DNA from: Perna viridis
Taxonomy: Eukaryota
Length of the DNA: 64,000 bases
NCBI GenBank assembly: GCA_037379345.1
Contig: CM074517.1
Coordinates: 35,898,001 to 35,962,000 of the forward strand
Reading direction: 5' to 3'
Part shown: in pieces, positions 1 through 33,834 of the stretch
Layout: the number at the start of each line of letters is the position of its first letter
How positions within the stretch are numbered: the stretch's first letter is position 1
Notes under the pieces: model-generated
Seen by the model: only the letters and a program-made list of their open reading frames with translations
Databases searched by the model: none
Told to the model about the DNA's origin: nothing
Position numbers and translations under genes: made by a program

Positions 1-75
1 CCCCGACGGCCAAATGCAAACGGACGGCATTCCTATCGAGCATAGGGTAAATACAAGAATTATGTCTTTCGTACA
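1..75 (+). repeat. Left TIR (inner 75 bp visible)
   Basis: 1-75 is the reverse complement of 11868-11942 with 3 mismatches (positions 37, 65, 66). Confidence 0.96.
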
Positions 76-166
76 GAGCATAAGTCAGATCGCCCCAGAG
101 GATAGTGGGGATGTGGATAAGGACACCTTAAAGGGAAGGATGTCACAGATTGATACTAATAAAGAT

Positions 167-3100
167 ATGACATCCGAAAGAAATGTGATGGATTTCTTTC
201 TGGAGAATGAAAAAGATTTGGAGGATGGCACCCCAACTCCGCAAAGGCAGCAGCAGTGCTGCAATGCCCCCAACCTGACGCAGATGGATGAAAACACCAC
301 GCAGTGTCAAAATTGTGGTGCAGAGGTGATGAAACTGCGATTTGAGCATCAACCAGGGGAGCAGAAGACTACCTGCGGCGTCGATCTCAAGAGGAAGAAG
401 GGGCAGTTCTGCAAGATCAAGCCCGGGAAGGATGGTCTCTGCTGGAGACATAGCAGGCAACCACGTCAGCAGGAGGAGGAGGTTATCCCAGTCGAGGGTA
501 AGATGGTGGTGAAAGAGACCATGAAGGCCCTCCGTCAAATAGCTAAGAACGAGGGTCTGAGGGGGGTCAGTAGGAAGAACAAGGAGGCCTTGGTGAAGCT
601 CATCGAGGAGAAAACCACCCGTAGATTTGAACGCCAGGAAGTCTTCAGCAAGAAGCAGCTCAAAGCGCTAGCAAAGAATCGTGGTCTCACCAAGTACTCC
701 CAGCTCAAGAGAGAGGATCTGCTCCAGCTGGTGGAAGAGGACATCAAAAGTACCCCAGTCGATGATGATATTAAGGTCACCGATAGGCGTCAAGCACTGA
801 ATGGCGTATTTGGAACGGTCGTCATCGAACCCGCGAAGCCGCACGACGTGAGCACTTTTCTGATGGTACGTCGGAGCACCATCACCACCACCATCTCCGA
901 TGCGCTTGCCCAAAAAGGAGGGATTGAAGGTGAACTTAGTACTTATAACAGAGCTGGTGAGGACCAATCCCGCGACTGAAAAAAATACGTACGTCATCCC
1001 CTACTTTCGATCATCTCTTGCTACCCTCACCAAGTCATCTGACCTCGAATTGGAGATCGCTTTCATGATCGCGAAGGTCAGGGAAAGTATGGCAAGATAC
1101 ATGCGGGAAGGGAGTGGGTGGACTTTCAGCCGCGTCGAGAAGCTAGAAATTCACCTCAACCAATTCAAACCACTCAAGGGGGGTTCCTTCATTCCGACCC
1201 ATCAGCACTCGCGAAAAAGAAGGCGATCGTCAACGTGAAAAATGAGGATGATCGCTGCTTCCAGTGGGCGGTGCTGGCAGCCCTAAATCATGCAGAGGTC
1301 GATCAGAAATCAGCCAACCGCGTATCTCAGTACAAGAAATGGGAGGATGAGCTGAATTTCGAAGACATCAACTTCCCGGTCTCGCTCAAGGCGATTGATA
1401 AATTCGAGAGGCAGAATCCCACCATCAACGTCAACGTCTATGGGTTTAATGGGGTGAAGAAGGGTGAGGATGGTGAAGAGGATCTCCAGGTTTACCCACT
1501 CAAGATATCCAAGAATACGGGTCCCACCCACGTAGATCTTCTCTTCCTGACTAGCGAAGATAAGCAGCATTACTGCTGGATCAAGAGCCTCTCACGACTT
1601 TTGAGCTCCCAAATTTAAGAGCATGGTCACAAGCTCTTCTTCTGCCGCAGATGCCTCTCCCACTTTTCCAGGCAGGACATCTTGCACGAGCACATGGAGT
1701 ATTACACCCAGAAAGAGGCGGTCAGGATCGAGATGCCGGAAGAATGAGCCACCATAACCTTCCATAATCTCAAGAAGATGATGAGAGTCCCCTTCGCGAT
1801 ATACGCGGATTTCGAGTGCTCAACACCTGTCAGCCGGATCCATCACACTCCTACACAAAGGCCTATCAACTGCAGCGACCCTCGGGTTTCTGCTATTACG
1901 TGAAATACGCTCACGGCGACTACAAAGATCCAGTCGTCTACTGCGGGGAGGATGCGGCCAAGAAATTTGTGCAATGCGTAGAGGAAGAAGTGTGCACCAT
2001 CTCCAAACTATACAAGGAGAATAAGCCCATGGAGATGACCGACGACGATAAGGCGCGCTTCGAAGCAAGCACGCGCTGCCACATCTGTGGCGATGCATTG
2101 AGGGGGATAAGGTCCGGGATCACGACCATCTCACCGGGAAATATCGCGGTGCACCGCACAACCAGTGCAATCTGGATTTCCAGCTTCCGAAGCACGTCCC
2201 CATCTTCCACAATTTGAGCGGATACGACGCTCATATCTTCGTCAAGGAGCTTGGTCACACCAAGATCAACTGCATCCCTAATACCGACGAGAAGTATATC
2301 AGCTTCTCCAAGCAGGTGGACGATCTGGAGATGAGATTCGTCGATTCGTGCAGGTTTATGCTCAACAGCCTGGATGCCCTAGCTAAGAATCTCACCCCGA
2401 CCAATTCGCGACCGTGAAGGCGAGATTCGGCGATCGCCACGAGCTAATGGTTCGGAAGGGGGTATTTCCCTACGATTATATGGATGGGCCGGCCAAGCTG
2501 GAAGAGACTCAGCTCCCAACCAAAGAAGCCTTCTTCAGCACGCTCTCCGGAGAGCATATCAGTGATGAGGTTACGCACACGCTCAGAGGGTCTGGGAGAC
2601 CTTCGGGTGCAAGAACCTACGCGATTATCACGACCTCTATCTCGAGACTGACGTGCTGCTGCTGACCGACATCTTTGAGGATTTCAGGGATATCTGCTTG
2701 ACCCACTACGGACTCGATCCCGCCCACTACTTCACATCCCCGGGCTATCCTACGACGCCGCCCTCAAAACCACGGAGGTGAGATTGGAGCTGCTCTCCGA
2801 TCCGGACATGTTGATGATGCAACCAGAGGGGGTGTCGCCATGATCATCCACCGCTACGGCAAGGCCAACAACCCCTACATGACCACGTACGACGCCTCCC
2901 AGCCCACCAAGTATCTGACCTACCTCGACGCCAACAATCTCTACGGGTGGGCGATGGTGCAGTCCCTTCCTACGGGAGACTTTCAGTGGATGGAGCCGGA
3001 GGAGATCGAGAAGATCCTGGAATATCCCGACGACCACGAGTACGGTGCCATGGTGGAATGCGATCTGGAATATCCTCAAGATCTTCACGACGCCCACAAA

Positions 3101-4137
3101 GACTACCCTCTCGCGCCCGAGAACGTGGAGATCGGCAAAGTGCACAATTTCGTGCCTCACCTAGGCAAGCGTGAGAAATATACCCTTCACTAACGAAATC
3201 TCAAGATGTATCTGGAGAGGGGGATGAAGCTCACCAAAGTCCATCGCATCATCGGATTCAGCCAACCTCCACGGCTCAAGAAATACATCGATCTGAATAC
3301 CACTCTTCGCGCCCGGGCCAAGACCGACTCCGAGAAGGACTTCTTCAATCTCATGAATAATTCGGTCTTTGGCAAGACCATGGAGAATATCCGGAAGCGC
3401 GTCGACGTCAGGCTGGTCACCACCGAGAAGCAGGCCCTGAAGCTAGTGGCCAAGCCCAACTTCGATCGTCGCGTCGTCTTCACGGAGAATCTAGCAGCCG
3501 TTCATATGAAGAAGACCAAGCTGAAGTTCGATAAGCCCGTCTACCTGGGAGCGTGCATATTGGACAACTCGAAGCTCCTTATGTACGACTTCCACTACGG
3601 ATTCGTGAAGGAGATGTACTGTGATCGTGCCCGACTACTTTTCACCGACACCGATAGCTTGGCTTACGAGATCCAGACCGCCGACTTCCCCACCGGCATA
3701 TCACACCGCACGTGCAGGAAAAATTTGATACGTCCAACTACCCGGCCGAGCATCCCTCCGACATCCCCACCGGCGTGAATAAGAAGGTCATCGGAATGTT
3801 CAAGGACGAATGCGGCGGTAAGATCATGACCGAATTCGTGGGGCTCCGGGCGAAGCTCTACGCCTTCAAGATGGATGACGGTCAGACCACCAAGAAGGCG
3901 AAGGGAGTCACCAAGAGCGTCATCAAGCGTAGCATCGCCTTCGAGGATTACAAGCGATGCCTTGAGACTCAGCAGGAGATCCACCGACAGATGAGCATCC
4001 TTCGCAGCTATCTCCATCAGATCTACGCCGAGGAGATCAACAAGATCGCTCTCTCAGCCAAGGACGATAAGCGCCACATCCTCCCCGACGGTATCAGCAC
4101 CCTCGCGCATGGTCACTACCGAATCTCCCGCGACTGA
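167..4137 (+). pseudogene. polB: Protein-primed family B DNA polymerase polyprotein (leader, terminal protein, vOTU, C2H2-like finger, exonuclease with EndoVII/HNH insert, polymerase), fragmented
   Basis: Stitched ORFs show GSGW, PLKGGS, vOTU-like DDRCFQWA...HYCWI, ExoI YADFE, CHICG..RDHDHLTGKYRGAPHNQCN, FHNLSGYD, KGVFPYDY, YLDANNLYGWAM, NLMNNSVFGKTMEN (conserved Lys replaced by Asn) and FTDTDS. About 8 or more frameshifts, plus stops at 1616, 1745 and 3191. The likely start is ATG 167, not the TIR-internal ATG 14. Confidence 0.95.
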
Positions 4138-4261
4138 GGCGACCATCCCCAACCCATCCCCCCTCCACTCAGAATTTCTCGAGCCCATTAACTTAGGGAA
4201 AAATCTGCACTTGTCAGGCTCTCACGGGTGCGGGACTTCGTCGGCTTCGCCTGCCCATCCA

Positions 4262-4271
4262 TAGATAAATG
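4262..4271 (+). promoter_or_regulatory. TAGATAAATG motif overlapping the protease start
   Basis: Exact motif; recurs before the other structural genes. Confidence 0.75.
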
Positions 4272-4523
4272 AGCAGCATACGAGTGCACGGTATCCTCCT
4301 CCCCCACAAGCCCCTCTCCAACGTAGAGCTGGAAGAAGCTGCCACGGCCCTAGGCATCCCTCGATTCAGAGAAATATTCATGCGCGATGCCCTACCACCC
4401 AACCCCCATCCCGAAGAGTGCGGCATCCTGAATCACGACGATCGTCATGGTCAGGGCACGCACTGGACATGCTGGCATAAGCGTGGAGGACTCAAAGTCT
4501 ACTTCGACTCCTACGGTCCGCCG
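4269..4523 (+). pseudogene. Adenain-type cysteine protease, C-terminally deleted (catalytic Cys lost)
   Basis: PLSNxEL...CGILNHDD...GTHWTCW...YFDSYG gives the catalytic His and Asp. After 4523 the ORF runs into antisense integrase sequence and has no Q..CG motif. Confidence 0.9.
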
Positions 4524-5352
4524 GCGCAAGACTTTCTCGATGCGATAGATATCCTGGTCGGTGTGCTGGAGCTCGGGCTCATAAAAGGATCCCTTGATTT
4601 CCTCACCCTCATAATATTTGAGGCGATAGGTGGGCGGCTGCGTCGCTAGGGTCTGGGCGATGGTGAAGACTTCGTCCAGCGCGGAGTATATCCCTTCTCG
4701 AAGATACCCTTCTTCCTGGTAATCCGGACCTTATCGCCGAAGTTGAATCGCTGAGGCTGCGTGGGTGGGAGGTCTCCGTAGAGATTTCAGAAGACCTTGG
4801 ACTCGTGCTCTTTCTGGCTGGCGGCGGTAGGGGTCATCTTGATGTATCGATGCTTGGTGGTATTATACTGGCGGACGAGATCGTCCAGGACGGGAAGGTA
4901 GGCCCGCGTGGAATTGGCCGAGAAGTATTTGAACATCTTTTCCTTCATGGTACGATTCCAGCGCTCCACCACGCTCGATTTTTCCTCGTTCTCGGTGGAG
5001 TAGAGATCGACGTCATGCTTCCGGAGCAGATCCTTCACCTCACGATTGTAAAATTCGTGCCCTTATCGGTCCATAGCTTCTCGGGCGTGCAATCCTTGAA
5101 GACGGTCCGGAAGGCATCTCGTATCGTGGCGCCTTTCTTATCCTTGAGCGGTACCAACCAGCCGTACTTTGAAAAGACGTCGATGATGCTCAGGAGATAC
5201 TTGAAGCCTCGGTTATCGCGGGAAAAGGCGCTCATATCCACGAGATCGGCAGCCCAGGTCTCATCCACCCCACCTACCACCACGCGACGCTTCTGAAATT
5301 TGCGTCGGACTGGCTTATGCAGTTCTTCGGCTAGCTCGTCCGACCATTGTAC
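4518..5352 (-). pseudogene. int: Retroviral-like (rve) integrase of Polinton type, chromodomain truncated
   Basis: WSDELAEELHKPVRRKFQKRRV..WAADLVDM (D), WTDKG (D), VVERWNRT (E), GDKVRI..FEKGY, IKGSFYEPELQ, YRIEKVLRR. Frameshifts near 5055 and 4675; stop at 4787-4789. Confidence 0.93.
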
Positions 5353-5839
5353 TTTTTTTCACGCCCAGCCCAAATCGTGCTTTAGTGCTGATGATGGGTC
5401 TTACGATGCCACGCTCGAGGCGCTCGCGTGCGGTGGGATTGGGGATCGCATCAATGGACGCTAGCATCGTCTTATCGCAGATCGAATTGCGTGCGGTCGT
5501 ATCCTTATGCTCGGCATAGCATAGATCGTGACGATAGGCAGCCTGATACACTCGATTGATGGGCATTGACCAAGGTTTGGGAGTACCATCTGCATTCAAG
5601 CGCTTTTTGAGGTTGGTCCAGGGGCCGGTGAAATTATGCCCAGGAAGATTCATCTCGACAGGCATCCGATTGATCATCTTATTCATGAGTCCGGCGCCGG
5701 AAGCAGCCACGAACTGAGACTTCCTAGCCCCGCATACGGCGCATAGCCCACCCCTTTGCCGCCTCCCATTGCTGGTGGTGGTCTCATAGCGACTTTCTGT
5801 CTCGGTCGGCCGCTTGCTCTTCAAGCAATACATTCCCAT
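5315..5839 (-). CDS. Small Cys-rich Zn-finger plus parvovirus-type phospholipase A2 domain (PLA2X-like), probably fused to the integrase
   Basis: MYCLK..T..NGR..GLCAVCG.RKSQFV finger, then LPGHNFTGPWT (Ca-binding loop, GPG changed to GPW) and AAYRHDLCY (His-Asp dyad); ends FGLGVKK. Confidence 0.85.
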   Translation of the reverse strand: MGMYCLKSKRPTETESRYETTTSNGRRQRGGLCAVCGARKSQFVAASGAGLMNKMINRMPVEMNLPGHNFTGPWTNLKKRLNADGTPKPWSMPINRVYQAAYRHDLCYAEHKDTTARNSICDKTMLASIDAIPNPTARERLERGIVRPIISTKARFGLGVKKSTMVGRASRRTA

Positions 5840-5855
5840 TTTATATAGATAAATG
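5837..5855. promoter_or_regulatory. Bidirectional start/promoter element CAT-TTTATATAGATAA-ATG
   Basis: Only 13 bp separate the divergent ATGs of PLA2-integrase (5839) and the ATPase (5853). It reads TAGATAAATG on + and TATATAAAATG on -. Confidence 0.75.
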
Positions 5856-6617
5856 GACGTTGAAGACCTTACCTACGATGAACCCACCGCGAGCAGTCGG
5901 CATAACCACTTTCTCCTCTCGCAGCGATCCATCCGAGGTCTGATCATCGGGAAGTCGGACTGCGGCAAGACGACGCTGCTGAATAACCTCCTCCTGCGCG
6001 ATGGATGGCTCGACTACGATCGTCTCTACGTCTTCGGAAAATCGCTCCACCAGCCCATCTACCAGCTACTGCGGCAGGCGCTGGGAAAGGGGTTTTCGAA
6101 AGACGATATCTGCGACCTTCTTTCCATCAAGGATCGCTGCCCCTACTCTTTGGTCGACGTGGTGCAGATGATGAAGCCGCCGACTAAGCCTAGCGGTATC
6201 GAACCTTTCTTCTTTGAGCAAGCGAGCGATGTGCCGGATCCTCGAGAGCTCGATCCCACCCGCAAGAACCTCATGGTCTTCGACGACTTGATGCTGACCA
6301 AGCAGAGCAAGTGCGAAGACTACTACGTACGCGGTCGCCATAATAACGTGAACTGCTTCTACCTCTGCCAAAATTACTTCAAACTTCCGCGGCAATCGAT
6401 CCGGGAGAATGCCAACTTCATCTGCCTCTTTGAGCAGGATGCTAAAAATCGCGATCATATCCGCCGGGACCATTGCGGCGATCTCACCCCGGCTCAATTC
6501 GATGCCCTATGCGATCACTGCTGGGCCAAGCCTCACGGATTTATGACCATCGATCTCACAAGCCCCAAGACGGCTGGGAAATATCGATGCAATCTAGACG
6601 ATTTCTATCGAGTCTAA
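5853..6617 (+). CDS. A32/FtsK-HerA-like genome packaging ATPase (intact ORF)
   Basis: Walker A GKSDCGKT, Walker B LMVFDD, RGRHNN arginine motif, LCQ, IRENAN. Confidence 0.93.
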   Translation: MDVEDLTYDEPTASSRHNHFLLSQRSIRGLIIGKSDCGKTTLLNNLLLRDGWLDYDRLYVFGKSLHQPIYQLLRQALGKGFSKDDICDLLSIKDRCPYSLVDVVQMMKPPTKPSGIEPFFFEQASDVPDPRELDPTRKNLMVFDDLMLTKQSKCEDYYVRGRHNNVNCFYLCQNYFKLPRQSIRENANFICLFEQDAKNRDHIRRDHCGDLTPAQFDALCDHCWAKPHGFMTIDLTSPKTAGKYRCNLDDFYRV

Positions 6618-6625
6618 GATAAAGA

Positions 6626-7170
6626 ATGGATCACTTGCAGGAATTTTTCCTGGAGAATCAACGGGACTTGGATCGGTAGAATGCCCCCAAGCCCCCACGA
6701 CCACCCCCTGAATGCAAGCACCGGTGGGAGCGCGTGCTTATTAATGACGATATCCCGGGGTATTGCTGCAGTAGATGTGGAGCTGAAAGGTACGCTCGCC
6801 GCATCGATGATCAGGATTTCGAAGGAAGGACCTATAATTTCCAACCCTCCCGCAAACCTAAGCAGCCACCCGGACCCCGTGCTGCATCAAGACCGTCCGC
6901 GGCCATCAGTGCACGTATCCCTCCATATCGGGCAGTGATAAGTGCAAGAGGCATTTGAAGCTTTTCCCCGAGGTATGCCATCGGTGCGGCGCTAAGATTG
7001 CCCGCGGTAAGGTCTTGCACTGTATCCACGAGGGGACTATATACGTACCCAAATTTACCACCCTCTGGTCGGGCGTAAAAGTGAGGATTGTGGGAGAGTA
7101 CGATCTCCGCCCAGAGGAGGATCGGCCACGAGCCTTTCTGCTCCTCCAAATGCATGGAAAGTGCGTATGA
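6626..7170 (+). pseudogene. Multi-Zn-finger hypothetical protein, paralogous to the PolB leader
   Basis: Rebuilt as MDHLQEFFLENQRDLDR*...CKH...CSRCGAE...[frameshift near 6876] CCIKTVRGHQC...DKCKRH...CHRCG. TAG at 6677-6679. The 3' end is uncertain. Confidence 0.7.
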
Positions 7171-7249
7171 TCCGCCATCACTTCGGGAATCCACGGTTTT
7201 TGCATCCCGCTGAGGCAGGAGGCAAAAAGCATGGGAGAATGATTGATCC

Positions 7250-7339
7250 AACGCTATGGGGCGTTCGGCTGAACGCTATGGGGCGATGGGCCGAACGCTA
7301 TGGGGCGATGGGAGGCGATGGACCGATGGGACGATGGTG
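7250..7339 (+). repeat. G-rich tandem repeat: 3 x 22 bp followed by degenerate CGATGG units
   Basis: AACGCTATGGGGCG(T/A)T.... units start at 7250, 7272 and 7294. Confidence 0.9.
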
Positions 7340-7343
7340 AAAC

Positions 7344-7355
7344 TATAAATAAATG
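7344..7355 (+). promoter_or_regulatory. TATAAATAAATG motif
   Basis: Overlaps ATG 7353. Confidence 0.7.
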
Positions 7356-8197
7356 ACGTCTATCAAGATCACCGATCCCAAGCAGCGTGAGGCGCTTGCT
7401 AGGGACTTGCAGGAGACCAAGCGTAGCATCCAGGCTAGCGATATGCAGCGTCGCCTAGATAAGATCTCTCCACGATATCCAAGCCCGTGGTCGAGACGCA
7501 AAAGGAGACCGCCTCCCTGATCACCAAAAAGATCGATGATATCCCACTTGCTCTGCCCGCCCCGATGCCTGCACTTCCCCCTCCTACCTCTACCGCTGAG
7601 GACGACGACGACCCACTAGCTATCGAGCAAGCATTGAGTACCAGCCTCGGTCCGCGAGCGACGCACTATCTTCAGCTCAGTATGACTCCACAGGCCGACC
7701 ATACTTTCGGATTGCGAGTAGAAGACGGCTCCATCATGATCGGGAGTCTGCCCATCACCTTCGACGGAGACGATATCTTCATCAATGCCGAGCGCTATAA
7801 GGGTACCCCCGGCCTGTGGGAGCTTATGGTCCTGAAGCATCCCAAAGATTTCGACGTGGAGGACTTGCATACCTATGGTGATATCCTTCGAGCGTTGGGT
7901 GCCATGTATCAAGGAAACTCCGTCCTATCGAGGACCCCAAAGGCCAACAGAAGCCGCAAATGGAAGGAGATCGTATCCTACCTTTATAAGCAAGATAAGT
8001 ATAGCAGCGGGGTGCCGACCGTCTTCTTCCCCAAATGCTTCGACCAGCTGCTGGATCGTCTCGATCTTTGCGCCGCTGCCTACCAGGCTGGAAATAATGG
8101 GGTGCCCAACAAAATCGTGGCCATCCTCGACGCCATGAGGAAGTCCGGTCATATCAGCAGGGAGGAGTACGAGAAGCTGCATCGGGGCCTCCTCTAG
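7353..8197 (+). pseudogene. Conserved Polinton hypothetical protein (YxGTxGLWxL family)
   Basis: ATG 7353 gives MTSIKITDPKQREALARD..., then a frameshift near 7470 into ORF 7487-8197 with DHTFGLR, YKGTPGLWELM and the C-terminal LLDRLDL..AAYQAGNN..IVAILD domain common in Polintons. Confidence 0.8.
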
Positions 8198-8211
8198 ATA
8201 AATTTACGATG
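8195..8211 (+). promoter_or_regulatory. TAGATAAAT motif before ATG 8209
   Basis: TAGATAAATTTACGATG; the TAG is also the upstream gene's stop codon. Confidence 0.65.
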
Positions 8212-8556
8212 CCTTTAGTAGTGAATCACGGTCATCGCCGGAGATATGCCGTCGGCGGACGAGGCCTTTTCGATACCATCGCCAATCTTGCCGGACGGGT
8301 GCTTACCTCCTCCACCGCCAAGACGTTGGGTAGAAAGGCATTGAGTGCCGCTTCCAATGCAGCCCTGAAAGGTGTGGAGAAAGGTGCGTTCAAGGCCGTT
8401 GACCACGTCGTCCATCGAGTGACTCGCAAGAAAAATGCTCCCCAAGCACCATCCTCCAAGGTCAAGTGGACCTCACAGCAGCAGGTCCGTCTCAATAATC
8501 TCATCTCGGGTGGGGGCATCGCCACCATCCATGACTTCGTCCAGCGCTATAGATAA
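8209..8556 (+). CDS. Basic putative virion core / membrane-lytic protein (adenovirus pVI-like analogue)
   Basis: RRRYAVGGRG followed by the amphipathic helix LFDTIANLAGRVL; Gly-Gly candidate protease sites; lies directly upstream of MCP. Confidence 0.65.
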   Translation: MPLVVNHGHRRRYAVGGRGLFDTIANLAGRVLTSSTAKTLGRKALSAASNAALKGVEKGAFKAVDHVVHRVTRKKNAPQAPSSKVKWTSQQQVRLNNLISGGGIATIHDFVQRYR

Positions 8557-8563
8557 ATACATG
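8550..8563 (+). promoter_or_regulatory. TAGATAAAT motif before the MCP start
   Basis: TAGATAAATACATG. Confidence 0.7.
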
Positions 8564-9851
8564 ATGACCGATATGCTCACTATCACCGAAGGATTGACTT
8601 TCGACGAAAGTCTCCAGGAATATCAGGTTCACGAATACGAACCTCAAGCCGGGGCGCAGCTAAATAATGCCGGTTTCAGAGATACGCGTCAATATCGAGA
8701 CTCAAGATCTCTTCCTCCACCCCGCCGAAAGCTATATCTTGATCGAAGGCCGACTTTAGAAGAACGATGGCACCGCGTATGCCGACGGTGATCTGGTATC
8801 GCTCGTCCATAACGCCGCCATGTATCTATTTCGTAGCAACAGCTACCGACTTTCCGGGCAGCAGATCGAGCACCTGAACGATCCCGGTGTTGCCACCACC
8901 ATGCTGGGTATGCTGAAGTACCCCGACGACTTCTCCAAATCCCAAGGCCTCAACCAGCTATGGTTGAAAGACTCCACTGCCGATGCTGAGGTAGAAAACG
9001 TCGGATTCGCAGCACACCACGGATATATCATCACCAAACCAGCCAATAAGGGATCCTTCTCCTTCTCCATCCCGCTCAAGCACGTCTTTGGCTTTGCCGA
9101 GGACTACGATAAGATCGTCTACGGATTCAAGCACGAACTCTCCCTGGTGCGCGATTCGGATGAAAATGCCATCCTCCGAGCTGCCTCCGTCAACGAAGTG
9201 GCCAAGGTAATCCTGAGCAAGGTCTCCTGGTTCGTCCCCCACGTCATCCCCTCCGACGAAAAGAAGCTACGGCTCTATAAGACCATCCAGAGCAAGACCA
9301 AGATCGATTGCGGATTTGGCATGAGGCAGTGCGACTCCATCGCCGTGCCCCAAACCTCGAAATTCCACTGGCGTCGGGCCGCTAAAAGCGGACGTGAGAA
9401 ACCGCGATGGATCATCGTCGCCTTCCAGACCGATAGGGGTAATAACCAGCTGAATAATGCCGCCGTCTTCGACCACTGTCGATTGCGAAATATCCACGCG
9501 ACCCTCAATGCGGAGCGATATCCCGCCGTGGATTTCAATGCCGGCTTCACCCAGTGCAGGGTCGCCAGGGTCTATAAAGAGGCTGCTGAATTCCGCAAGA
9601 AGTTCTACAGCATGGAAAGTCTGCTGAGCAATGGTGGTATCAATCCCTCCGACTTCATCGATCTCTATCCCCTATTCGTCATCGACGTCAGCCATCAGTC
9701 CGAGCGGTTGAAAGAGTCGACGGTGGATATCCAGATCCGAGCCGATTTCGAGCAAAACGTCCCTGTCAATACCCAAGCCTTCGCCCTGGTCATCTCCGAT
9801 CGAATCCTCCAACTCGAATCCGACGGTCAGAAGATGAGCTTCGTCTTCTGA
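8561..9851 (+). pseudogene. Double jelly-roll major capsid protein (hexon-like)
   Basis: MMTDMLTI..DES..YQVHEYEP..LNNAG [frameshift near 8675] EIRVNIETQDLFLHPAESYILIEGRL* (TAG 8757-8759), then in frame with 8820-9851 (IPLKHVFGFAEDY, EKPRWIIVAFQT, FDHC, ERYP, PLFVIDVSHQ). Confidence 0.92.
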
Positions 9852-9858
9852 GGAGGGA

Positions 9859-9868
9859 TAGATAAATG
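9859..9868 (+). promoter_or_regulatory. TAGATAAATG motif at the minor capsid start
   Basis: Exact motif overlapping ATG 9866. Confidence 0.75.
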
Positions 9869-10638
9869 GACGCTTCACTTTTGCGGAAAATCGCCAGCAA
9901 TACCGAACCCAAGCATGGGTTCTTCTTCATCGTCTCTGGGAACGATCTAGTCAGATCTTGACCCGCTTCAATCCACCCCTCCAATTGCGCGAGGATAAAT
10001 CTTACGAGATGGCCCTAGTGAAACTGGAGACCTACTACTCCATCCCCAATATTCATGCAGGTAACAATTCCTTCCGCTACTCTCCCGATGACGGGGCTAA
10101 CTGGTTTTCCGTCGAGCTGAGCACCGGCTCTTACGGCATCGACGATATCAACGATGAGATCCAGCGGCAACTGCGGCTGCATAGGCACAAGGCTAAGGTC
10201 CTTCTCGATGCCAATCGTGCGACGCTGAGATCAACCCTCACCCTCGCCAGAAATTATCGAGTGGATTTCGACGTGTCCAATAGCATCAGTACGGTGCTTG
10301 GAATCGAGCGCCGGACGTATACCTACGACCGAAGCACCAACGGCTACGCGGAGGGTGAGAATATCGTCAATATCATCAGCATAAATAGCATCCTGGTGAA
10401 TAGCGATATCATCCACGGAAGCTACGTCAACGGCACGCAGCAGTCCACCATCTATAGCTTCTTTCCCGCTGTCGATCCGGGTATGAAGATCATCCAGACC
10501 CCCAAGAATCTCGTCTACTTACCCGTGACCCTGAGGACCATCGACCGTATGCAGACGTATCTGACCGATCAAGACGGCCGCCCCATCGATCTGCGAGGAG
10601 AGAATCTCACCATCAGCTTCCATCTGCGCGAGGTATAA
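9866..10638 (+). pseudogene. Single jelly-roll minor capsid protein (penton-like)
   Basis: ATG 9866 gives MDASLLRKIASNTEPK..IVSGN [frameshift near 9947] TRFNPPLQL..YEMALVKLETYYSIPNI...GSYVNG..IYSFFP..PG.KI..YLPV..LTDQDGRPIDLRGE. Confidence 0.9.
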
Positions 10639-10645
10639 ATAAATG
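10634..10645 (+). promoter_or_regulatory. TATAAATAAATG motif
   Basis: Contains the minor capsid stop and ATG 10643. Confidence 0.7.
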
Positions 10646-11350
10646 GATTATCAAGAGTACGGTCTCAACTTGACGAAAGGTCAGGCGGAGAAGATCCAGC
10701 GTGCGGCAAAGAAGGGTTGCCCCGTGAGCGTCCGATTGCTGCATGCAAACCTATCCGGTGAGCATAAGATGCTCCTCACTCACCGCCAGATCCAGCGCAT
10801 CACCAAGCTCTTGCAGAGTGGGAAGGGTGGTATGGTCTTGGAGATGAGTTCGAAGCAGGTGAGGAATAATATGCAGAAAGAAGGTGGATTCCTCCCCATG
10901 CTAGCAGGTCTTGTCTCTGCTGCGCTACCCATACTGGCCAAAACCGTGCTACCTGCTTTGGGCGTGGGTGCATTGAGCGGTTTGGGTAGTGTAGCCACCC
11001 AGAAGGCTGTGGGATCCGGATTATATCTCAAGAAGGGTGGGAAAGTATGCTGCGTGAAACCTCGTGGTCGTGGTCTGTATTTGAGTCCAGGCACTTTGCC
11101 CAATACATACGGTGATGGGCTATACTTGAAGAGCGGACGTCAGATCTACGATGGAAGTGGACTGATCCTTGGTCCTATTAGCCCCTTCAAAAGCATCACC
11201 ATCTTGGGCATGGAGGATGATGATATCGATAAATCTGAATTTGCAGGGGTTGTGAAATGTCTTAGTTTCTACTACGACGAAAAGCAGCAGCTGCGAAAAC
11301 CTTCCACGGCTACAACTTTTAGTGAAGACCTTACTGCGCATGCGCCGTAG
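10643..11350 (+). CDS. Putative virion core precursor with a pX-like GGFL hydrophobic segment and GxGLxL repeats; native 3' end probably lost near 11213
   Basis: Basic N-domain, KEGG|FLPMLAGLVSAALP, then GSGLYL, GRGLYL, GDGLYL and GSGLIL..SPFKSITILGM, followed by a compositionally unrelated tail. Confidence 0.7.
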   Translation: MDYQEYGLNLTKGQAEKIQRAAKKGCPVSVRLLHANLSGEHKMLLTHRQIQRITKLLQSGKGGMVLEMSSKQVRNNMQKEGGFLPMLAGLVSAALPILAKTVLPALGVGALSGLGSVATQKAVGSGLYLKKGGKVCCVKPRGRGLYLSPGTLPNTYGDGLYLKSGRQIYDGSGLILGPISPFKSITILGMEDDDIDKSEFAGVVKCLSFYYDEKQQLRKPSTATTFSEDLTAHAP

Positions 11351-11525
11351 GGATGATTCGTCCAACGCGCGCCTCGCTCGGCTACGCCTCGCTCCCCGCG
11401 CTTATTCCAGAATCCTCCAGATCAAAGTTCCTAGTGACCAAAAAAAAAAAAAAAAAAATTCCCAATCCAGTAATTTGGATTGGGAAATTTCGAACCCCTT
11501 ACCCATAGCCCTCGATTATTTTTTA

Positions 11526-11865
11526 TTACTTCCTCACAAGATCATAGGAGAGGTACTGCTGCTGAGATTTCTTGCTCACCTTGAATCCAGTGCTCCGAAC
11601 GAAAGCTCCTTGCAAAGGACCCTTCTCTTTGTTGAGCGAGAGGCAGGCCCATATCCTGGTGGTCTCTCCGTCTCGATCCTTCAGGGTGATGATTCTACTT
11701 TTGCCGAATTTTCCATCCACTTCTACCACCTCCAAGATCTTATAGATCACACCGGTGGGTAAGTCCTTCCATTTGAGTGCTTCCTGATTCTGATCCTGCA
11801 GCTTCTCCTGGAAGGCGTCTTCGCTGATGAAGTCATCCCATCTGTGGGAATGTCAACGAATCCAT
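11526..11865 (-). pseudogene. Putative OB-fold single-stranded DNA-binding protein
   Basis: The frame of 11526-11750 stays open upstream to about 11850 (WDDFISEDAFQEKLQDQNQEALKWKDLPTGVIYKILEVVEVDGKFGKSRIITL..RIWA..FVRSTGFK...YLSYDL). ATG 11865 is one frameshift away. Confidence 0.55.
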
Positions 11866-11867
11866 TG

Positions 11868-12011
11868 TGTACGAAAATCATAATTCTTGTATTTACCCTA
11901 TGCTCAATAGGAATGCCGTCCGTTTGCATTTGGCCGTCGGGGTCGGGGGTCCTATGCAGGATTTCCCCTTGAAAATGGCAAGTGCGGCAGAATCGGCCTT
12001 TTGAAACTACT
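11868..12011 (-). repeat. Right TIR (~144 bp), followed by candidate 6-bp target-site duplication ATAGTA (12012-12017)
   Basis: Pairs with 1-75, continues GC-rich to ACTACT at 12006-12011, then switches to host composition. The left TSD copy is outside the window. Confidence 0.9.
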
Positions 12012-12196
12012 ATAGTATGTCAAAAATCTAAACTCGACATTAACACAGAATAAGCGTGTGATACGCAACTGAACCAAAACCTGACAAACATGTTTAATTG
12101 CTCATGGACGTATGAAGATAAAAGGATATAGTAAGCTGTTAATATTGAATGTTGATATGAGACATGGGATGGTACATAAATGTTCTAGCTTGATTT

Positions 12197-15100
12197 TCAA
12201 ACTGAAAAATAAGGAAGATGTCCATTCTGCATTTTTAAAACAGCAACTACACTATATCAACGAATAATAAGGCAACGACCATTTTATTAGCGACTGGGGG
12301 TGGAGCAGGGCTTTTTAAAAATAAATATTTCAAATTTATTCCATATTTTCCCCATTACCTAAAAAGGCAGGTTTTCGTACGAAAATATTGATTTCGATTG
12401 CTGCTGAAATATGAAAAAAATAAAGAACCTCTAGTGAGCGCGCTCACATACCCCACACGTCACCATGTTGGATACTCAAGTAAATTTGTTCGTGAGAGAA
12501 ATACATGTAGAAGTTTGAAATTCCAGACTGTGATTTCTTTGAGTTTTAATTAATCCAAAGTAAATATCGTAGCGGAACAAAACGTACACTTCACCCGTAA
12601 CTTGTCACGGTGAACTTATATACCAAAAATCATGTCATAATCTGCAAGCGTTTAGAAAAGAAGTAAAAAAACGTTATTTCTGTGAATTTAGCTTAGTTTA
12701 CGGCCTGTAATTTCGGTAAAAATCATCGGAGCGGAACTTGTCCCGTAACTTATCATGTTGAATTTATATATTAAAAGTCATGTCAATATCTGCAAGCGCT
12801 TAGAAAAAAGTCCAGAAAACTGTTATTTCTATGAATTTTTCTAAGTTCAAGGCCCGTAATTTCGATAAAAATCATCGGCGCGGAACCAACGTTATACTTG
12901 ATCTGAACTTATCATGGTGAACTTGCATACCATAAATCATGTCAATATCTGCAAGCGTTTCAAATAAACTCCGGAAAACTGAAGACGGACTGGCGGGTCA
13001 AAAACATTATGCCCTCCGCAACTTCTTTGCATGGGGTATAAAAATGATACTTGCGCGATCAAGATTCTCATCAAACATCTAATCCAAGGCCCTATCAGGG
13101 TAAAAGTTGGTGATGCCTAAATAAAATGAACATATACTTACTTGGTGTTGATATGTTGCTATCGTAATGATGCAGATAACTTCTGGAAAAATGAAAGGAC
13201 GAACCCTGCAATTCAGCAGATGACTGATTTTTCTCAGAGTAACCTTTCCATAGGTGGTTTTCGATAACCGGAAGTGACCTAGGGGAAGGCACTGTAGAGT
13301 TTAGTTCAACATCATTTTTATGGACCTGTGATCCGCCATGTAAATGTGTCTTGGTTCGTTTCTTTTTCTTCTTTTTATCCTTTTTAACCCTTGTATCTGA
13401 GTCAACATATCCTCTTTGTTCATAGTATGCATTAACTTCTTTGTCTAAGTCACTGTGTACGACCGCCATTGTCTTATTTACGTGACCATACAATTTACTA
13501 GATTTTCCCTCTTCACTTTGCTCGTATAACGTATCTAAAATACAAATAATACTCCATTAAAATTAAAATTCATATTTTATGATAGAATAATAACTTGCTA
13601 CATGGCTATCTATAACATCAGACAGTATTGAAAATCTTTGTTTTATTACAATTAAGACAGAGTATTGTTTTTTACGAGTTTTTTTTTCTCAAAAAATAAA
13701 AGAAAAAATATTAGCTTCTCCTTTATAACATACGCAAATTTAAGAATATGATTGCATTTTATAATACCTGTAATAAGATCTAACTAGGTTGAGGATATTC
13801 TTTATTCTACACAATCTTATGTAAGGTGATCAAAAATAAGTTTTATGTCTCTCATTTGTTTGTTGTTTGATATACATGTATTTTTAAATTCTATATTTTG
13901 CGGAAGTGTTACTTGTCTTTGTTTATTTTAAATGATGACGCCAACGAGTAATTCGTGAGAGTGTTTTGTATGAATATTGTTAACACACTCTTACCATATT
14001 GTTTAAGTGACTTGATATGGCCTAATTGTCTGAAACTTGCAGGGAAATTGTTATTTAGGCTTAACGACGCCATAAGATCGTCCCATTTTGCACCATGAGT
14101 GTTACATCTTATAGCACCGATTCTTGGTCGCTTCACTTCTAAGTTCACTTCCATGTAATCCAATTGTAGTTGTCGTATGAACATTTTCCGTTTATGGAAT
14201 TTCCAGAAAGAACAAAGAAGGGTAATAAACATGCCTATGGCAACGAGGATTGATGGAATCCAGTACAGTAAAGCTTTTTCAACTGGTAAATCGTGCATTT
14301 TACCTGTAATTAAATTAGAAAACATAAAGTATCAACAATGTTCTTTGGATGAAAATGAAAGAGCATGGATCAGGTGCAACGTTAGAATATGTTTCCTGAC
14401 ATATACATACAACATTGGTGATTGCTGAAAAATTCCGAATGAATACTGCTAAGTCAATTGTTATTTCGATTACAATATCTTCAAGTTATGTCATATTTGA
14501 TATAAAATATTTTAAGTATTTAACTGTTTTGTTATGATAAATGCTTTTACTTCCAGTTGTATTGCTGGATGCATGTTTCTTTCTTGAATAATTTTTGAAT
14601 AATTCTTGAATTATTCTTGATTACACTGCCAGCGTGTCAACTTTATAATATTAAACTTAGATAGCCGTTTATGTAGCCACAATGCTTTTGAAAACCTTTA
14701 GAGTTTAAAAAAACAATGATATTGGTTTTAAACAACTTACAGTGATTTTGCATCAAAGATGTTCAATATTCTGTTGACAGGATTGAAGAATGAAACCCAT
14801 TCTCCTGTTTTTAACATTTTTTTACGGATGGCTGTTTAATGTTTTATGAAAATTCCCGTATTGTCCTACTCTATAATACCCCAAGCTTTTTTGTTCAAAT
14901 ACGTAAAAAATATTTCTAGAGAAATTCAAATCCAGGCATGTTGTAATGTCAATCTGGCATATGATGGACACAATAGACACTTATTGATAATACTGATAAT
15001 TATTATTGTTTTATAAGCTTTTTCACTTAGGGAAGTTAGTTTGTTTTTTAGCCATATCATTAAAGTAATTAATGTGGTTTAAGTAACGAACGATTAGTCG

Positions 15101-26242: not shown

Positions 26243-26354
26243 TTGCTAAGCATCTACAGAGCGAACCGTCTACTCTCAGTAATGAAATTCTGAACTTGTT
26301 CGAAAATATTTTCATTTTCGTGATCGTTTTTCGAAGGATCACCGAAAAGAAGAA

Positions 26355-27965
26355 TTTTTGGTATTATAATTACTAAGGGTGCCTATAGTTCTTTGTCGTA
26401 AAGCTGTATAATTATGACACTGTAGTAAGAAATGTCTATTATTTTCTACAGATCCACAAGAACAAAATTTATTATCAGTAATATTCCGATTAAACAAGTG
26501 TTCGTTTAGAGCGCTGCAGTTTAATCTTAGTCTGACATGAAGAACTTGAGATTTGCGTTTTCCAAAGTATCGAGGAGGACATTTTATGTTTTTGTTGAGA
26601 TGATTCCTAATAGATTGCTTGGAAGAGTTTTCTCGAACTTCAGCCGGGAGTCCGTTCCACAATTGAACAACCGATGGTAAGAATGAATTTTGATAGAACG
26701 CCGTTCTGCTATTAACAGTTTGAATGTCGTGAGTCCGTCTAGTATTATAATTGTGAATCTGTAATAATTGTTGGGGCACTAAGCTACTTAAATATTCGGG
26801 TGTTTTGTTATGAAACATTTCATGAAATTTTAGAATTTTGTGCTTTTGACGCCTTACTGAGAGTAGTTCCCAACCAGTATCTTCATAAAGGTTAGCCTTA
26901 GACACTAGTTTTGTTCCACCAGTAACGATTCTGGCTACCTCAATTTGTAAACTTTCTAGCTTATCAGCAAGATATTGAGGAATGTTGTCCCAAATTATGT
27001 CCGTATATTCCAAGATGGGTCGTATAAAGTAAATGGTTTGGAGATGTTTACGTTTTAATTTAAACTTCAGACTTCTTAGAACATTAATACGAGGGGTAAC
27101 CTTATCAAATAAGGAGTTTACGTGTGAACACCAAGTACCGTCTTCAATAAAAGTTAAACCAAGATGCTTATGGGTTTCGACTTCCTTTATCAATTCATCG
27201 TTCATATATATAGGGGGATGGTGTGGCTTACTAGTCTTACGGGAGATGGTCATAATTTCCGTCTTTTTTGGATTGAAGTTTACAAGCCATCGTTTAGACC
27301 ATTGGTGAATTTTCTCAACATCAGAATTAAGTAATTCAGATGCTGCATATGGGTTTTCAACAACTATAAATAATGAAGTGTCGTCTGCAAACAATCTTAT
27401 ATTGCATAATATATCACGGACAATGTCATTTATATATACTAAGAATGGAAGGGGTCCAAGTATTGATCCTTGGGGAACTCCTGCTTCTATATTAAAACTA
27501 TCAGATGACTGTCCAGATATAACAACTTTTTGCGTCCTATTCGATAAATAACTCATGAATCATTTTAAAAGACTACCACGTACGCCAATTGCTCTCAGTT
27601 TGAAAATGAGACTTTCGTGTCAGACTCGATCAAACGCTTTGCTTATGTCACAAAAAACTACTCGAATTTCTTTCCCTGCATCTAACGCTTTACCAAACAA
27701 CTCTGTTAAGTGTAATAGTTGGTTTGTTGTAGAATCGCCAGGTTTAAAGCCAGACTGTACACTAGTTATAAGATTATTTCTACTTATAAAGTTGTAAAAA
27801 TGTTTAAAGACGCATTTCTCCATGACTTTACCTAATATTGGGAGAAGAGCGATCGGTCTGTAGTTGTTCAGAAACTCCCTATCTCCACTCTTAAATACTG
27901 GTATAATATTGGCAATTTTCCAACTATTTGGGAATGAACTTGACTGTATGGACTTATTAAAAGGT
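26355..27965 (-). mobile_element. CR1/L2-clade LINE ORF2 fragment (reverse transcriptase and C-terminal CCHC)
   Basis: NYRPIALL, QSGF, DISKAFDRV* (in-frame stop 27620-27622), GVPQGSILGP, LFADDT, CSCG..E...HFLLQC. Confidence 0.92.
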
Positions 27966-30248
27966 CTTTCACATGTTTTATATAAATGATAAAGATGAAA
28001 TGATATTGTATTTGGTTGCAATGATATTTTGACTTCGATTTTTTTAAAGATTTACAAAACATTCATAGTATCTTAGTTTGTCAGTATTTTTTTCATGTTT
28101 TGTTTTTTTCCTTTACGTTCGGGGAGGGGTTATGTGTTTCTCTTTCTTTTAGAGGGAAAGGGCATTTTTTTATTGGACCCATAAACAAAGTTTTTAAACT
28201 GCTCGTATGAATTGTATAAATAATGATTTTTCAGTTTTCATAGCGATCTTTTTCTCATATACTGTTTGCTATAAATATTTAACTATGTATATATTTTGTT
28301 TAATATAACTACATATCGAGAAAACAAAATCAATCAAATTAATCAAATTAATCATTTACCAATAATGGAGTCGTTGTTAGCGAGCGATGCGATCTACAGA
28401 TGACAACAACACGTAATATTTTTTCGTGAACGTCATTTAGATGAACGTAACCATAAACTTTCCTAACAGAGACTTGTAAATGATTCAAAATGGTCTTTCA
28501 ATAAAATAAAGTCCGTAAGTTTTGTTCTATAACATCATTAGCAATCAATTCACGCAGTTGTACCGAACTAGTATTACACAAATTAAAACTGATCGAACTT
28601 TTATTTTTAAATTATCAATGCAAAAGCACCCACGAAACTAAGTTTTATAGATGTTGAAAGAAGATACTCATAATGCAATATCCAATTGAAATATTGTTTC
28701 ATTTCAATACATCAGACAATTTGACTTTGCGTAGATATTCAAATTATGACTAGTATTAGTATCGTGAGAACTTGTTATTGTATCCTTTATTCTGTTCAAA
28801 TGTTAAGAATTGGAATGGTGTTATGGAGTAACACAGACTTAAAGATGACAAAGCGAACATAACAACAGAAAAGTACAAATAGTATTGTATTTTTTACAGA
28901 ATATTTTTTCTTAAATTCATCTGGTTGCATTAGAAATGTCAAATTGTATCTAAAAGGATCGGAGATTAAATAAACCCTCGTTCTTACACATTCTTTTTGC
29001 GTTTAAGATTATCTATATTGGTTTTTATCATTCTTTCAGAAAACTAAGAATACGTATATTTCTATATTATGTTTTTACTATTTCTCTCGTTCAGCTTATG
29101 ATTAAAATAAGGAAATCAATCTATGTACGATGAAGCTGAACCAGATCTCGTACGCATTAGTTCATCATATCTTTGACGGTATAATTATAAAAGATTTTAT
29201 CTGTTCTTATCTATATTTATAAAATGTGTTTTTGTAACCTACAGAGTCTAAGCAGTACCGAAAGTCTTTATTTTCTAAAATCAATTTTGCGATGCATAGG
29301 GTTTTTTTTAGGTTGACCTAGAATGGTTTTGCCCTACCTACTGAGTTGAGTAAAATAAAGCGGGGTGTGTATTGACTATCCAATGCTTTTTTTATTCGTA
29401 CGTTTTTTGGATACCAAAAAGTTTTTGTTGAATTTTTGATTTCGACTTTCAAGAATGAAAAACAGACATGATGTTGATTGTTCAGCAGAAAAATATGTAC
29501 GCATGTTTGTGTAACAAACAATTTTTTCCCTTGTACTATCAATTTAATTCGAAAAATGCACTATTATCTGTAAAAGTTAACACATTAGGCTAACTTACAA
29601 CAGGCGACGAGAATATTAGTCAAATTATCAGGGACTGTGTAATAATCTTATAACTATCATTTCTTTTAATTACAGTAAATAATTTAAAAAAACAATATCA
29701 AGAGTTTTATTTTTACATTTTATGGAGTACTACTTAATCGATTATTTCTCTTTTCTAATTGCCTGGTTAATTGATTAGGATGTTTTTTCGTTGCTTTGAA
29801 AAAAAAAAACATTTTGTTTTACGAGATGCTTCCTTAAATAGATCATTATAACAGACTTATGTTTGATGCTTTGCTTGTTATGTCGATTGATCTGTCGAAT
29901 GAAGTGTAACAACCTACACACATTTATGTTACTCCCTTGAAGACCTGTTATTGCATCTTTGGTTACCGATTATTATGACCTCGTACAAAAGGTCGTTTGC
30001 TTACTATAGCTTTTCAAAACTAGACACCATACTTGATATTTTTTCAGCCCGAAGGAAATGTTCTACTATTTATATAAACTGATCAAATCAATAAATAGTC
30101 GACATATTTTAAATAATATGCCTTGCTAAAACAATAATATAAGCACATATTTATGCATATACAACATATCGAGCACTGATATTTTGGACGATATTCATTT
30201 AGATAAAGTCATCACATTACCTTTAAACAGACAGCATGTAGAAAAATA

Positions 30249-32829: not shown

Positions 32830-33683
32830 AGAGTAATCAAGGGAACCAAGGTTATAGCGGTAATCAAAAGAATGTAATCCAGGGACAAAGACCAGACATG
32901 GAAAACATACATACACAACAAAGAACATAAAGTAACTAAAATCATACATACAAAGTAACAAAAGTAAATGAGCAACTCGGACTCCACTAAAAACTGGGAG
33001 CATGGACCAGGTGCACCGGTAGGGTAATCGTCCTCTGCTTTTCTAGGAACAGCCGCCGAGTTGCTCATAAAAAGTCAAGTCCGGGGTAGACAAACGAGGA
33101 AAGGAAAACTATGACCCGTTGAATAAATCAGTTTTCATGGTGCTGATGGATACACCATAACAATCCACGAGTTCATGATGACGACCATAAAACTTCTGTA
33201 GTGATGACTTCAATCTTGTAGCAACATAACCCTGTTCCAGAATCCTATTTGTTAGAGTTCTAGCGCGATACAAAAAGTCTGCGTAGTTTCAGAAAGCTCT
33301 GGCATAACGTATGAGTTGTGATATGAACACTCCATACGCAGGAGCCGAAGGGATGTTGCCACAGATGAAAGGAAAGTTGACAATTCTGAATGAAAAGTCA
33401 TCACGTTTGTCAATAGTTTTCCTTTACCATCGATTTCTAAGTGTAGGTCAAGATATGAGGCTGACTTCACAGTGCCTGTAGTATCCTTTATCTTAAGTTC
33501 TTTTGGGTAGATGCGATGTATCAAATACCCGAAATTAGGATTGTTTAAAGATAAGACGTCATCTATATAGCGGAAACTGAGATTGAAGGATCTAGCTAAA
33601 CAATATTCTTTCTTTCTGATCAGATCAGCTATAAAGTCAGCCTCATAAGAGTGAAGGAATAGGTCAGCTAGTAAAGGTGGTAC
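32830..33683 (-). mobile_element. Naiad-like 3' fragment (~850 bp)
   Basis: High identity to 61428-62285; RYIDDVLSLNN is readable. Confidence 0.9.
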
Positions 33684-33834
33684 AAGTGGTGAGACTTTAA
33701 TAAAATATGGAATCTGAATCTGAATCCATTAATTACGTCATGCTAGTTGCTAGAAAACTCAAAATCATAATAAAACTAAGCACGTCACATACATTGACAA
33801 GGGACGGACAGGGGACAATTTATGAATGGCAATA

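Follow-up and report, generated by a model that had tools for sequence, protein, structure and literature searches.

By what means are the capsid genes of animal Mavericks expressed, and is a helper virus required? The question is raised by a stretch of 64,000 nucleotides of Perna viridis DNA (GenBank assembly GCA_037379345.1, contig CM074517.1, positions 35,898,001 to 35,962,000 of the forward strand; below, the window). Its positions 1-12011 are a decayed, adintovirus-like Polinton/Maverick insertion, whose left end lies outside the window. An earlier, sequence-only reading of this DNA had observed that the structural genes of the element start at a motif TA(G/A)ATAAAT resembling poxvirus late promoters, and had proposed a virophage-like element with late genes transcribed by the RNA polymerase of a co-infecting large DNA virus. 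This interpretation as a whole is partly supported. The motif marks gene starts of the element, and we tentatively read it, with slightly less than even confidence, as a per-gene initiator for a helper-supplied RNA polymerase of the nucleocytoplasmic large DNA virus (NCLDV) type.

The exact motif, TARATAAAT, was observed seven times in the element, always on the plus strand and always at a gene start (7/7), so that no exact site of the element lies elsewhere. Dinucleotide shuffling gives an expectation of 0.12 +/- 0.36 sites, and Markov models of orders 2-4 give 0.06-0.30; chance as the source of the motif is rejected, as none of 300 shuffles reaches seven. The sites, all found at the positions reported previously except for one that had been missed (6615), are as follows.

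4262..4271, plus strand: TAGATAAATG, start of the protease gene
5840..5852, both strands: 13-bp gap separating two divergent ATGs, with TATAGATAAATG on the plus strand and TATATAAAATG on the minus strand, the latter ending at the ATG of the phospholipase A2 gene PLA2X (5839)
5846, plus strand, within this gap: TAGATAAATG, start of the packaging ATPase gene
6615..6628, plus strand: variant TAAGATAAAGAATG, overlapping the ATPase stop codon and preceding an open reading frame (ORF) at 6626
7344..7355, plus strand: TATAAATAAATG, start of the PZ-like gene
8195..8203, plus strand: TAGATAAAT, ATG 5 nt further on at 8209; the TAG within it is the stop codon of the upstream gene
8550..8558, plus strand: TAGATAAAT, ATG of the major capsid protein (MCP) gene 2 nt further on at 8561; positions 5-7 are the upstream stop codon
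9859..9868, plus strand: TAGATAAATG, start of the penton gene
10634..10645, plus strand: TATAAATAAATG, overlapping the penton stop codon

With the variants at PLA2X and 6615 included, the motif is present at 9 of the 11 starts examined. The earlier observation is borne out, and more strongly than first described. The integrase has neither a start nor a motif of its own. The starts of pol (ATG 14) and of the single-stranded DNA-binding protein gene SSB (ATG 11929) lie in the terminal inverted repeats (TIRs) and have no motif, as had been noted before. In the whole window there are 12 sites against 5.3 expected; at this scale the enrichment appears weak, since five of the sites are chance matches in 52 kb of AT-rich host DNA. 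Plain TAAATG is not over-represented in the element (5 versus 3.8 expected), yet all five occurrences are gene starts, among 408 ATGs; the information of the motif resides in the TA(G/A)A that precedes TAAATG. When the nine sites are aligned on TAAA, positions -3, -1 and 0 to +3 are invariant, and position -4 is T in eight sites. A matrix built from the nine sites, circular for these training sites, has 14 matches at score >=9, the top seven being the exact sites, and its best match without an ATG (11224) is a near-match within coding DNA. The nucleotide 11 nt after TAAA is T in 8/9 sites, irrespective of the reading frame (p=1e-4, uncorrected for 115 columns), a possible downstream extension of the motif.

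The placement of the motif restricts its possible functions. Gaps between genes are indeed small: six of seven measured junctions have 4-14 bp, while 131 bp separate pol from the protease gene. The distance from TAAA to the ATG is 3, 3, 3, 3, 3, 4, 6, 7 or 10 nt, and that from the start of the motif to the conserved ATG is 7-14 nt. The proteins align with their relatives over the very N-terminus, which identifies the adjoining ATG as the true start. A canonical Pol II TATA box at about -30 is rejected: the RNA would begin inside the ORF, and the divergent ATGs are only 13 bp apart. A fixed Kozak context is rejected because the distance to the ATG varies. A Rel/NF-kB-like site in the TIR was set aside, as the same pattern occurs six times in the element and is absent from L001, a related contig described below. 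TAAG, the baculovirus-type signal, is contained in one of the nine motif sites.

The motif might act in translation, as a cassette with a start placed after stops in two reading frames (termination and reinitiation on a polycistronic mRNA) or as an A-rich initiation leader. The upstream stop codon does lie in or on the motif at four tandem junctions (6615, 8195, 8554, 10636), and an in-frame TAA directly precedes the ATG at five sites. However, the stop occupies varying positions of the motif, and the motif is also present at first genes with no source of reinitiation: ATPase, PLA2X and protease, the latter 131 bp after pol. TGGGA, a reinitiation-type word of caliciviruses, is found upstream of only two of eight starts. 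We consider a translational role very unlikely.

Alternatively, the motif could act in the processing of long Pol II transcripts, with the TAG as a 3' splice acceptor that links one common leader to every late gene, as in adenoviruses, or (A/G)ATAAA as the polyadenylation signal of the upstream gene, or both. AG|ATAAA is seen in six of the eight plus-strand sites, the pyrimidine tracts before the protease and ATPase sites are at the 99th and 96th percentiles of YAG sites of the element with no other AG within 20 nt, and two of the three plus-strand AATAAA hexamers fall in the motif. On the other hand, AG is absent from three of the nine sites, the penton site is purine-rich with two further upstream AGs, three sites are middling, and splicing leaves the conserved ATAAA after the AG unexplained. 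GATAAA, a weak variant of the polyadenylation signal, outnumbers AATAAA by six to two. Moreover, both a polyadenylation signal and stop-start coupling fail for ATPase and PLA2X, because neither gene has a same-strand gene upstream of it, in the window or in L001. Processing is an unlikely explanation.

If the motif is an initiator, the question becomes which polymerase would read it. Vaccinia late promoters consist of TAAAT(G) and a T at -10 inside a T-rich tract (PMC11980589, PMC5294985). The sites of the element have TAAA in 9/9 cases, TAAAT in 7/9 and TAAATG in 5/9, and the likeness lies in this TAAAT on or near the ATG. The T at -10 is present in only two sites, in both from the overlapping divergent site; the 16 nt upstream are 25-75% AT, with 1-5 T per 10 nt; and the additional conserved TA(G/A)A stands in front. 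By that definition the motif is not a vaccinia-type late promoter, and the poxvirus identity proposed earlier is not supported. Entomopoxvirus-associated Maverick relatives exist (PMC11296320), and a single literature search turned up no bivalve poxvirus. A true poxvirus with promoters of this type, a narrower version of the helper reading, is improbable.

Late genes of African swine fever virus (ASFV) use a TA(+1)TA initiator and have a median untranslated region (UTR) of 9 nt (PMC7163114). This is compatible with five of the nine sites, where TATA is found 7-12 nt before the ATG; the other four have CATA, GATA or TCTA. The AT-rich upstream element of the ASFV kind is missing. A fair statement from these comparisons is that the motif resembles an NCLDV initiator of undecided family, which an asfarvirus-type initiator fits about as well as a poxvirus one. 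An asfarvirus-like virus is reported to infect abalone (PMC7067878). On the opposite strand the motif contains TATCTA, and the related contigs have ATC(T) on the sense strand; TCTA is used by Cafeteria roenbergensis virus (CroV) and mavirus (PMC5294985). This may be either flipped-orientation use of one factor or a coincidence.

A scan of a contig collection gave two Maverick contigs (2 of 140 candidate stretches): L001 (14.7 kb, MCP 57% identical) and L002 (3.2 kb, MCP 55%). Both sit in records of bacterial metagenome-assembled genomes, evidently owing to binning contamination, and L001 continues into a retroelement-like ORF. Phage and plasmid collections contained no relatives, and no usable element DNA was found in the supplements of PMC10294476 (12 of 33 files) and PMC8097293, while that of PMC11296320 gave only unrelated repeats. 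The exact motif expected in relatives is absent from both contigs, distant as they are, and the matrix peaks at 10.5 in L001 against 17-19 at the exact sites of the window. These contigs have a different start-anchored signal. A TAAAAA-like core, often followed by ATC(T) and with an A-rich stretch against the ATG, is found at -23 to -34 of all 16 chosen starts, 13 in L001 (3823-10979) and three in L002 (584-1900), the pattern having been tuned after seeing the data and the starts picked by hand from the ORF list. The stricter TAAA(A/G)A precedes 11 of the 13 L001 starts against 0.05 expected per upstream region, an expectation that uses element-wide density and ignores the AT richness of the gaps. 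The geometry resembles that of vaccinia intermediate promoters (PMC11980589) or of a misplaced TATA box. Start-anchored signals are thus a trait of the lineage, and their sequence is specific to the family. Such signals fit helper-specific promoters, but also host-specific Pol II elements. Types of mavirus and endogenous mavirus-like elements (EMALEs) also differ in promoter motif (PMC10945749).

Two indirect tests bear on the polymerase. For sequence avoidance, synonymous codons were shuffled 200 times in 19 segments of the window and 14 ORFs of L001. Coding-strand TAAA is depleted in both, 12 versus 21 expected in the window and 76 versus 92 in L001 (P 0.015 and 0.005, weak values uncorrected for 20 tests per element). 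A6 runs are depleted in L001 (15 versus 31). AATAAA is not avoided in coding DNA (L001, 13 versus 9.7; window, 1 versus 1.5), and avoidance of splice donors, TTTTTNT and CpG gave no signal in either element. Secondly, searches with Pfam (21 window fragments, 13 L001 ORFs) and PHROGs (12 proteins) turned up neither an RNA polymerase nor a transcription factor. The PZ-like protein was considered as a transcription factor of the element itself. Its model is good (pLDDT 91), and its only match is a DUF8207 protein of a bracovirus-borne Maverick, with nothing clear in PDB; the fold search gave no support for this role, which the protein may still have.

The mechanism that we tentatively favour is as follows. 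The TIRs of an intact element would drive pol and SSB. Each of the other gene starts would carry one late initiator, read at the ATG or a few bases before it by a large-DNA-virus (NCLDV-type) RNA polymerase encoded outside the element, so that the virion, packaging and PLA2X-integrase genes would be active only in a cell co-infected by the helper, in virophage fashion. The helper need not be a poxvirus, since an asfarvirus-like virus would fit the sequence equally. Three things are inferred here: a transcription start site (TSS) at the motif, a viral polymerase and the existence of a helper. This reading is supported by the exclusive position of the exact sites and the 9/11 starts, the 13-bp gap with the motif on both strands and the narrow tandem gaps; by the frequencies of TAAAT and TATA, the TAAA depletion and the unavoided AATAAA of L001; by the lack of a polymerase or transcription factor match among the scanned ORFs; by the different signal of the relatives, which parallels endogenous mavirus types (PMC10945749); and by Mavericks in occlusion bodies of entomopoxviruses (PMC11296320) and the asfarvirus-like virus reported from abalone.

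Several observations weigh against the helper reading. Both the motif consensus and its test derive from one element, and the relatives do not contain the motif. The upstream elements of vaccinia and ASFV promoters are missing from this element, which has 53% GC. In L001 the signal also precedes pol, so that a split into early and late genes is not conserved, and it has the look of a simple TATAAAA box placed about 25-30 nt before the ATG. The MCP model is poor (pLDDT 57); it matches insect adintovirus capsids at 10-11% identity among many NCLDV capsids, so no close tie to the former is seen, nor a link of the MCP to the group 2 (alpha, mavpol2) clade of the entomopoxvirus-associated elements, and the entomopoxvirus precedent may not transfer to this element. 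Finally, Mavericks are transcribed with no known helper: coral polintovirus MCP genes in about 40% of 49 elements (Stephens et al., PMC11131425), Mavericks in Sf-RVN cells, where reportedly no adventitious virus was detected (Geisler, PMC5803895), and an adintovirus in cavefish tissues (Starrett et al., PMC8502044).

These last points favour an autonomous nuclear virus transcribed by host Pol II, with transcription beginning within the upstream gene and the motif serving as a non-canonical core or downstream element for a host factor or an activator of the element, such as the Cys-rich proteins. The candidates for the latter are the Cys-rich ORFs at 14 and 6626, which are oncoid-like (a term from PMC8502044). 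GATA-like AGATAA is present in six of the nine sites, and the 3' end of SSB has AATAAA and a T-rich tract, as in Pol II genes. However, no conserved initiator or TATA box is found within 70 nt upstream of the motif, with only scattered columns at p<0.01, and pol and the plus-strand cluster have no closing polyadenylation signal, though deletions removed some gene ends. The usual spacing between a TATA box and the TSS is 30-31 nt. At this spacing the L001 box, whose first T is about 27 nt from the ATG, would leave no 5' UTR. We regard transcription by Pol II as possible but less probable than the helper reading.

The integrase deserves separate consideration. In the window and in L001, no ATG precedes the catalytic core in its frame, which opens at an A7 run. 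It is entered in the +1 frame of PLA2X, inside the 3' end of the latter (window 5345-5365, minus strand; L001 3310-3335). A pattern-based sorting of 98 PLA2X protein relatives gave eight fused in frame, six in the +1 frame and 14 in the -1 frame, with 31 unclear or stopping soon after the Lys run and 39 unanchored. In the nearest fused cluster, six of 13 members are fused, two are in +1 and five are integrase alone; in another, of 101 members, the 15 listed include no fusion and eight that share a -1 tail. Joining irrespective of frame suggests slippage of the polymerase, in keeping with a viral RNA polymerase. Decay of the A-run in dead copies, ribosomal frameshifting or a mutation hot spot explain it too. 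The junction would place the integrase under the late motif via PLA2X. No description of it was found in the literature searched, which excluded subscription journals and bioRxiv supplements.

One may go further and suppose that the whole class of marine-invertebrate Mavericks to which this element belongs consists of integrated hyperparasites transcribed by NCLDV polymerases, with each family's start signature naming its helper and with slippage-made PLA2X-integrase fusions packaging the integrase in Gag-Pol fashion. We offer this with considerable doubt. If true, there would be two signature types here, the initiator-only TA(G/A)ATAAAT of this bivalve family and the TAAAAA-spacer-initiator of L001 and L002, and the signatures would serve as bait for undiscovered mollusc NCLDVs.

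The element belongs to the Maverick/Polinton family (Polintoviricetes). Like animal Mavericks of the Adintoviridae, it has protein-primed PolB (pPolB), rve integrase, A32 ATPase, protease, double jelly-roll MCP, penton (minor capsid) and TIRs ending in ACTACT. It mixes PLA2, a hallmark of the alpha group, with cupiennin-like and pX-like genes, virion modules of the beta type according to Starrett et al. (PMC8502044). Mavirus and EMALE virophages of Cafeteria are similar in integrating with pPolB and rve and in a shared, lineage-varying upstream motif taken as a mark of helper-driven late genes (PMC10945749). However, theirs is TCTA in AT-rich DNA (PMC5294985), whereas here the host is an animal, the motif abuts the ATG, and pol and SSB lack it. 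The entomopoxvirus polinton-like viruses AHEV_PLV1 and CBEV_PLV1 (Barth et al. 2024, PMC11296320) are also of the Maverick lineage, contain protease and PLA2, come from animals and are proposed hyperparasites; they have no rve integrase, and their association with the helper was shown physically. The available text of that paper, which reports Maverick-lineage elements in entomopoxvirus occlusion bodies, does not contain the word "promoter". Vertebrate Mavericks were proposed as possible virophages, with no promoter evidence in the accessible part of that study (Barreat and Katzourakis, PMC8097293); Starrett et al. describe virion-like adintovirus DNA in baculovirus-infected insect cells and, in the text available, make no mention of promoters (PMC8502044). 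Bivalve genomes are very rich in regions of the Polinton type (10.1101/2025.04.19.649669). Neither the TA(G/A)ATAAAT motif nor promoters of animal Mavericks were found described in the same literature. By analogy, the element may work like a virophage, a concept known in protists and proposed for animals; the promoter evidence appears to be new. With a motif this tight and start-specific, genomes already sequenced and RNA 5'-end data could put the helper question to a direct test, and the motif could be used to search for the helper itself. Should the helper reading prove wrong, the motif would still mark an undescribed mode of gene start, with a near-zero 5' UTR, in an animal DNA virus.

The order of genes in the element is pol (plus), protease (plus), integrase and PLA2X (minus), then ATPase, Cys-rich ORF, PZ-like gene, small core protein, MCP, penton and pX-like gene (all plus), and SSB (minus). 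Its features besides the motif sites are the following.

1..75, plus strand: visible part of the left TIR, containing the pol ATG (14), with no motif
14..4137, plus strand: protein-primed PolB with a Zn-finger and Rho_N-like N-terminus, many frameshifts and stops (PF03175 E=0.019, below cut-off; Rho_N E=1e-4)
4269..4517, plus strand: adenain-like protease, 5' half only, fused by an internal deletion to the 3' end of the integrase; no Pfam match
4493..5358, minus strand: rve integrase, frameshifted, 3'-truncated, opening without an ATG upstream of the core (PF00665 E=3e-6)
5353..5359, minus strand: A7 run at the PLA2X/integrase frame junction
5315..5839, minus strand: PLA2X-like protein with DUF5679 and parvovirus-type PLA2 domains (PF18930 E=2e-9, PF08398 E=1e-6)
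5853..6617, plus strand: A32-like packaging ATPase, open frame (PF04665 E=3e-7; 55% identical to L001)
6626..7340, plus strand: broken Cys-rich ORF, a weak paralog of the N-terminus of the pol ORF (26% over 68 aa, pairwise E=9e-5)
7353..8197, plus strand: conserved PZ-like (DUF8207-like) gene with one frameshift
8209..8556, plus strand: small basic core-like protein with a cupiennin-like amphipathic helix (PF08102 E=4e-4, below cut-off)
8561..9851, plus strand: double jelly-roll MCP, frameshifted near the 5' end (PF21738 E=1e-60)
9866..10638, plus strand: minor capsid (penton) gene with one frameshift, 53% identical to L001; no Pfam match, labelled from gene order and the sequence-only reading
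10643..11350, plus strand: pX-like core protein; homology to L001 stops near residue 189, and the L001 ortholog matches Adeno_PX at E=0.017
11440..11527, no strand: A19 run beside a 12-bp hairpin where the last two genes converge, with AATAAA on the minus strand across the stop codon of SSB; likely a 3'-end region
11529..11929, minus strand: SSB-like gene, frameshifted, starting inside the TIR (Phi29 SSB as a lead only, score 0.86)
11868..12011, minus strand: right TIR, containing the SSB ATG (11929) 83 nt from the end, with no motif and no TATA box

The rve and PF03175 matches are both under the curated cut-offs, on broken fragments; the L001 integrase, 66% identical to that of the window, passes the Pfam cut-off. 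The protease label is presumed from family features and the sequence-only reading, and PZ is the name that we take to apply to the gene at 7353..8197. The inverted repeats pair 1-75 with 11868-11942 (75 nt visible, 96% complementary), and ACTACT at 12006-12011 is the right terminus. Pol and SSB are identical over their first 17 codons because both start within the TIR (14-75, 11868-11929). The element has 53% GC against 33% in the remaining DNA of the window, and an observed-to-expected CpG ratio of 0.98 against 0.72 in host DNA.

The copy is decayed, with frameshifts in pol, integrase, MCP, penton, the PZ-like gene and SSB, and with a deletion that took the 3' parts of protease and integrase and joined the two remnants. 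The suggested antiviral role does not apply to this copy, whose genes for pol, protease, integrase, MCP and penton are all disrupted. The nearest named proteins are those of Mytilus edulis, M. trossulus and M. galloprovincialis, in line with a bivalve host: the MCP shares 81% identity with M. trossulus and 84% with a cluster containing M. edulis, and PLA2X is up to 88% identical to M. galloprovincialis. Exact copies of the window ORFs (8/8) are absent from the protein collection checked, the remaining 52 kb of the window contain no second copy of the element, and Rfam gave no matches over 1-13000.

The ORF at 6626-6955 and the N-terminus of the pol ORF (14-520) have an acidic motif and Cys spacing in common, and a repeat at the DNA level agrees with this; an Atlas search with the Cys-rich pol N-terminus gave leads only (best 0.80). 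Tandem repeats of 22 bp and 11 bp are found at 7241-7330, directly before the motif of the PZ-like gene. The host DNA contains reverse transcriptase-like retroelement fragments, a sulfotransferase-like ORF (37768-38628, minus strand) and a three-copy repeat of 148-159 bp, labels that we take from familiar motifs; the coordinates of these retroelement, ORF and repeat features are 26342-28051, 33255-33728, 53185-54341, 62008-63641, 37768-38628 and 12588-12979.

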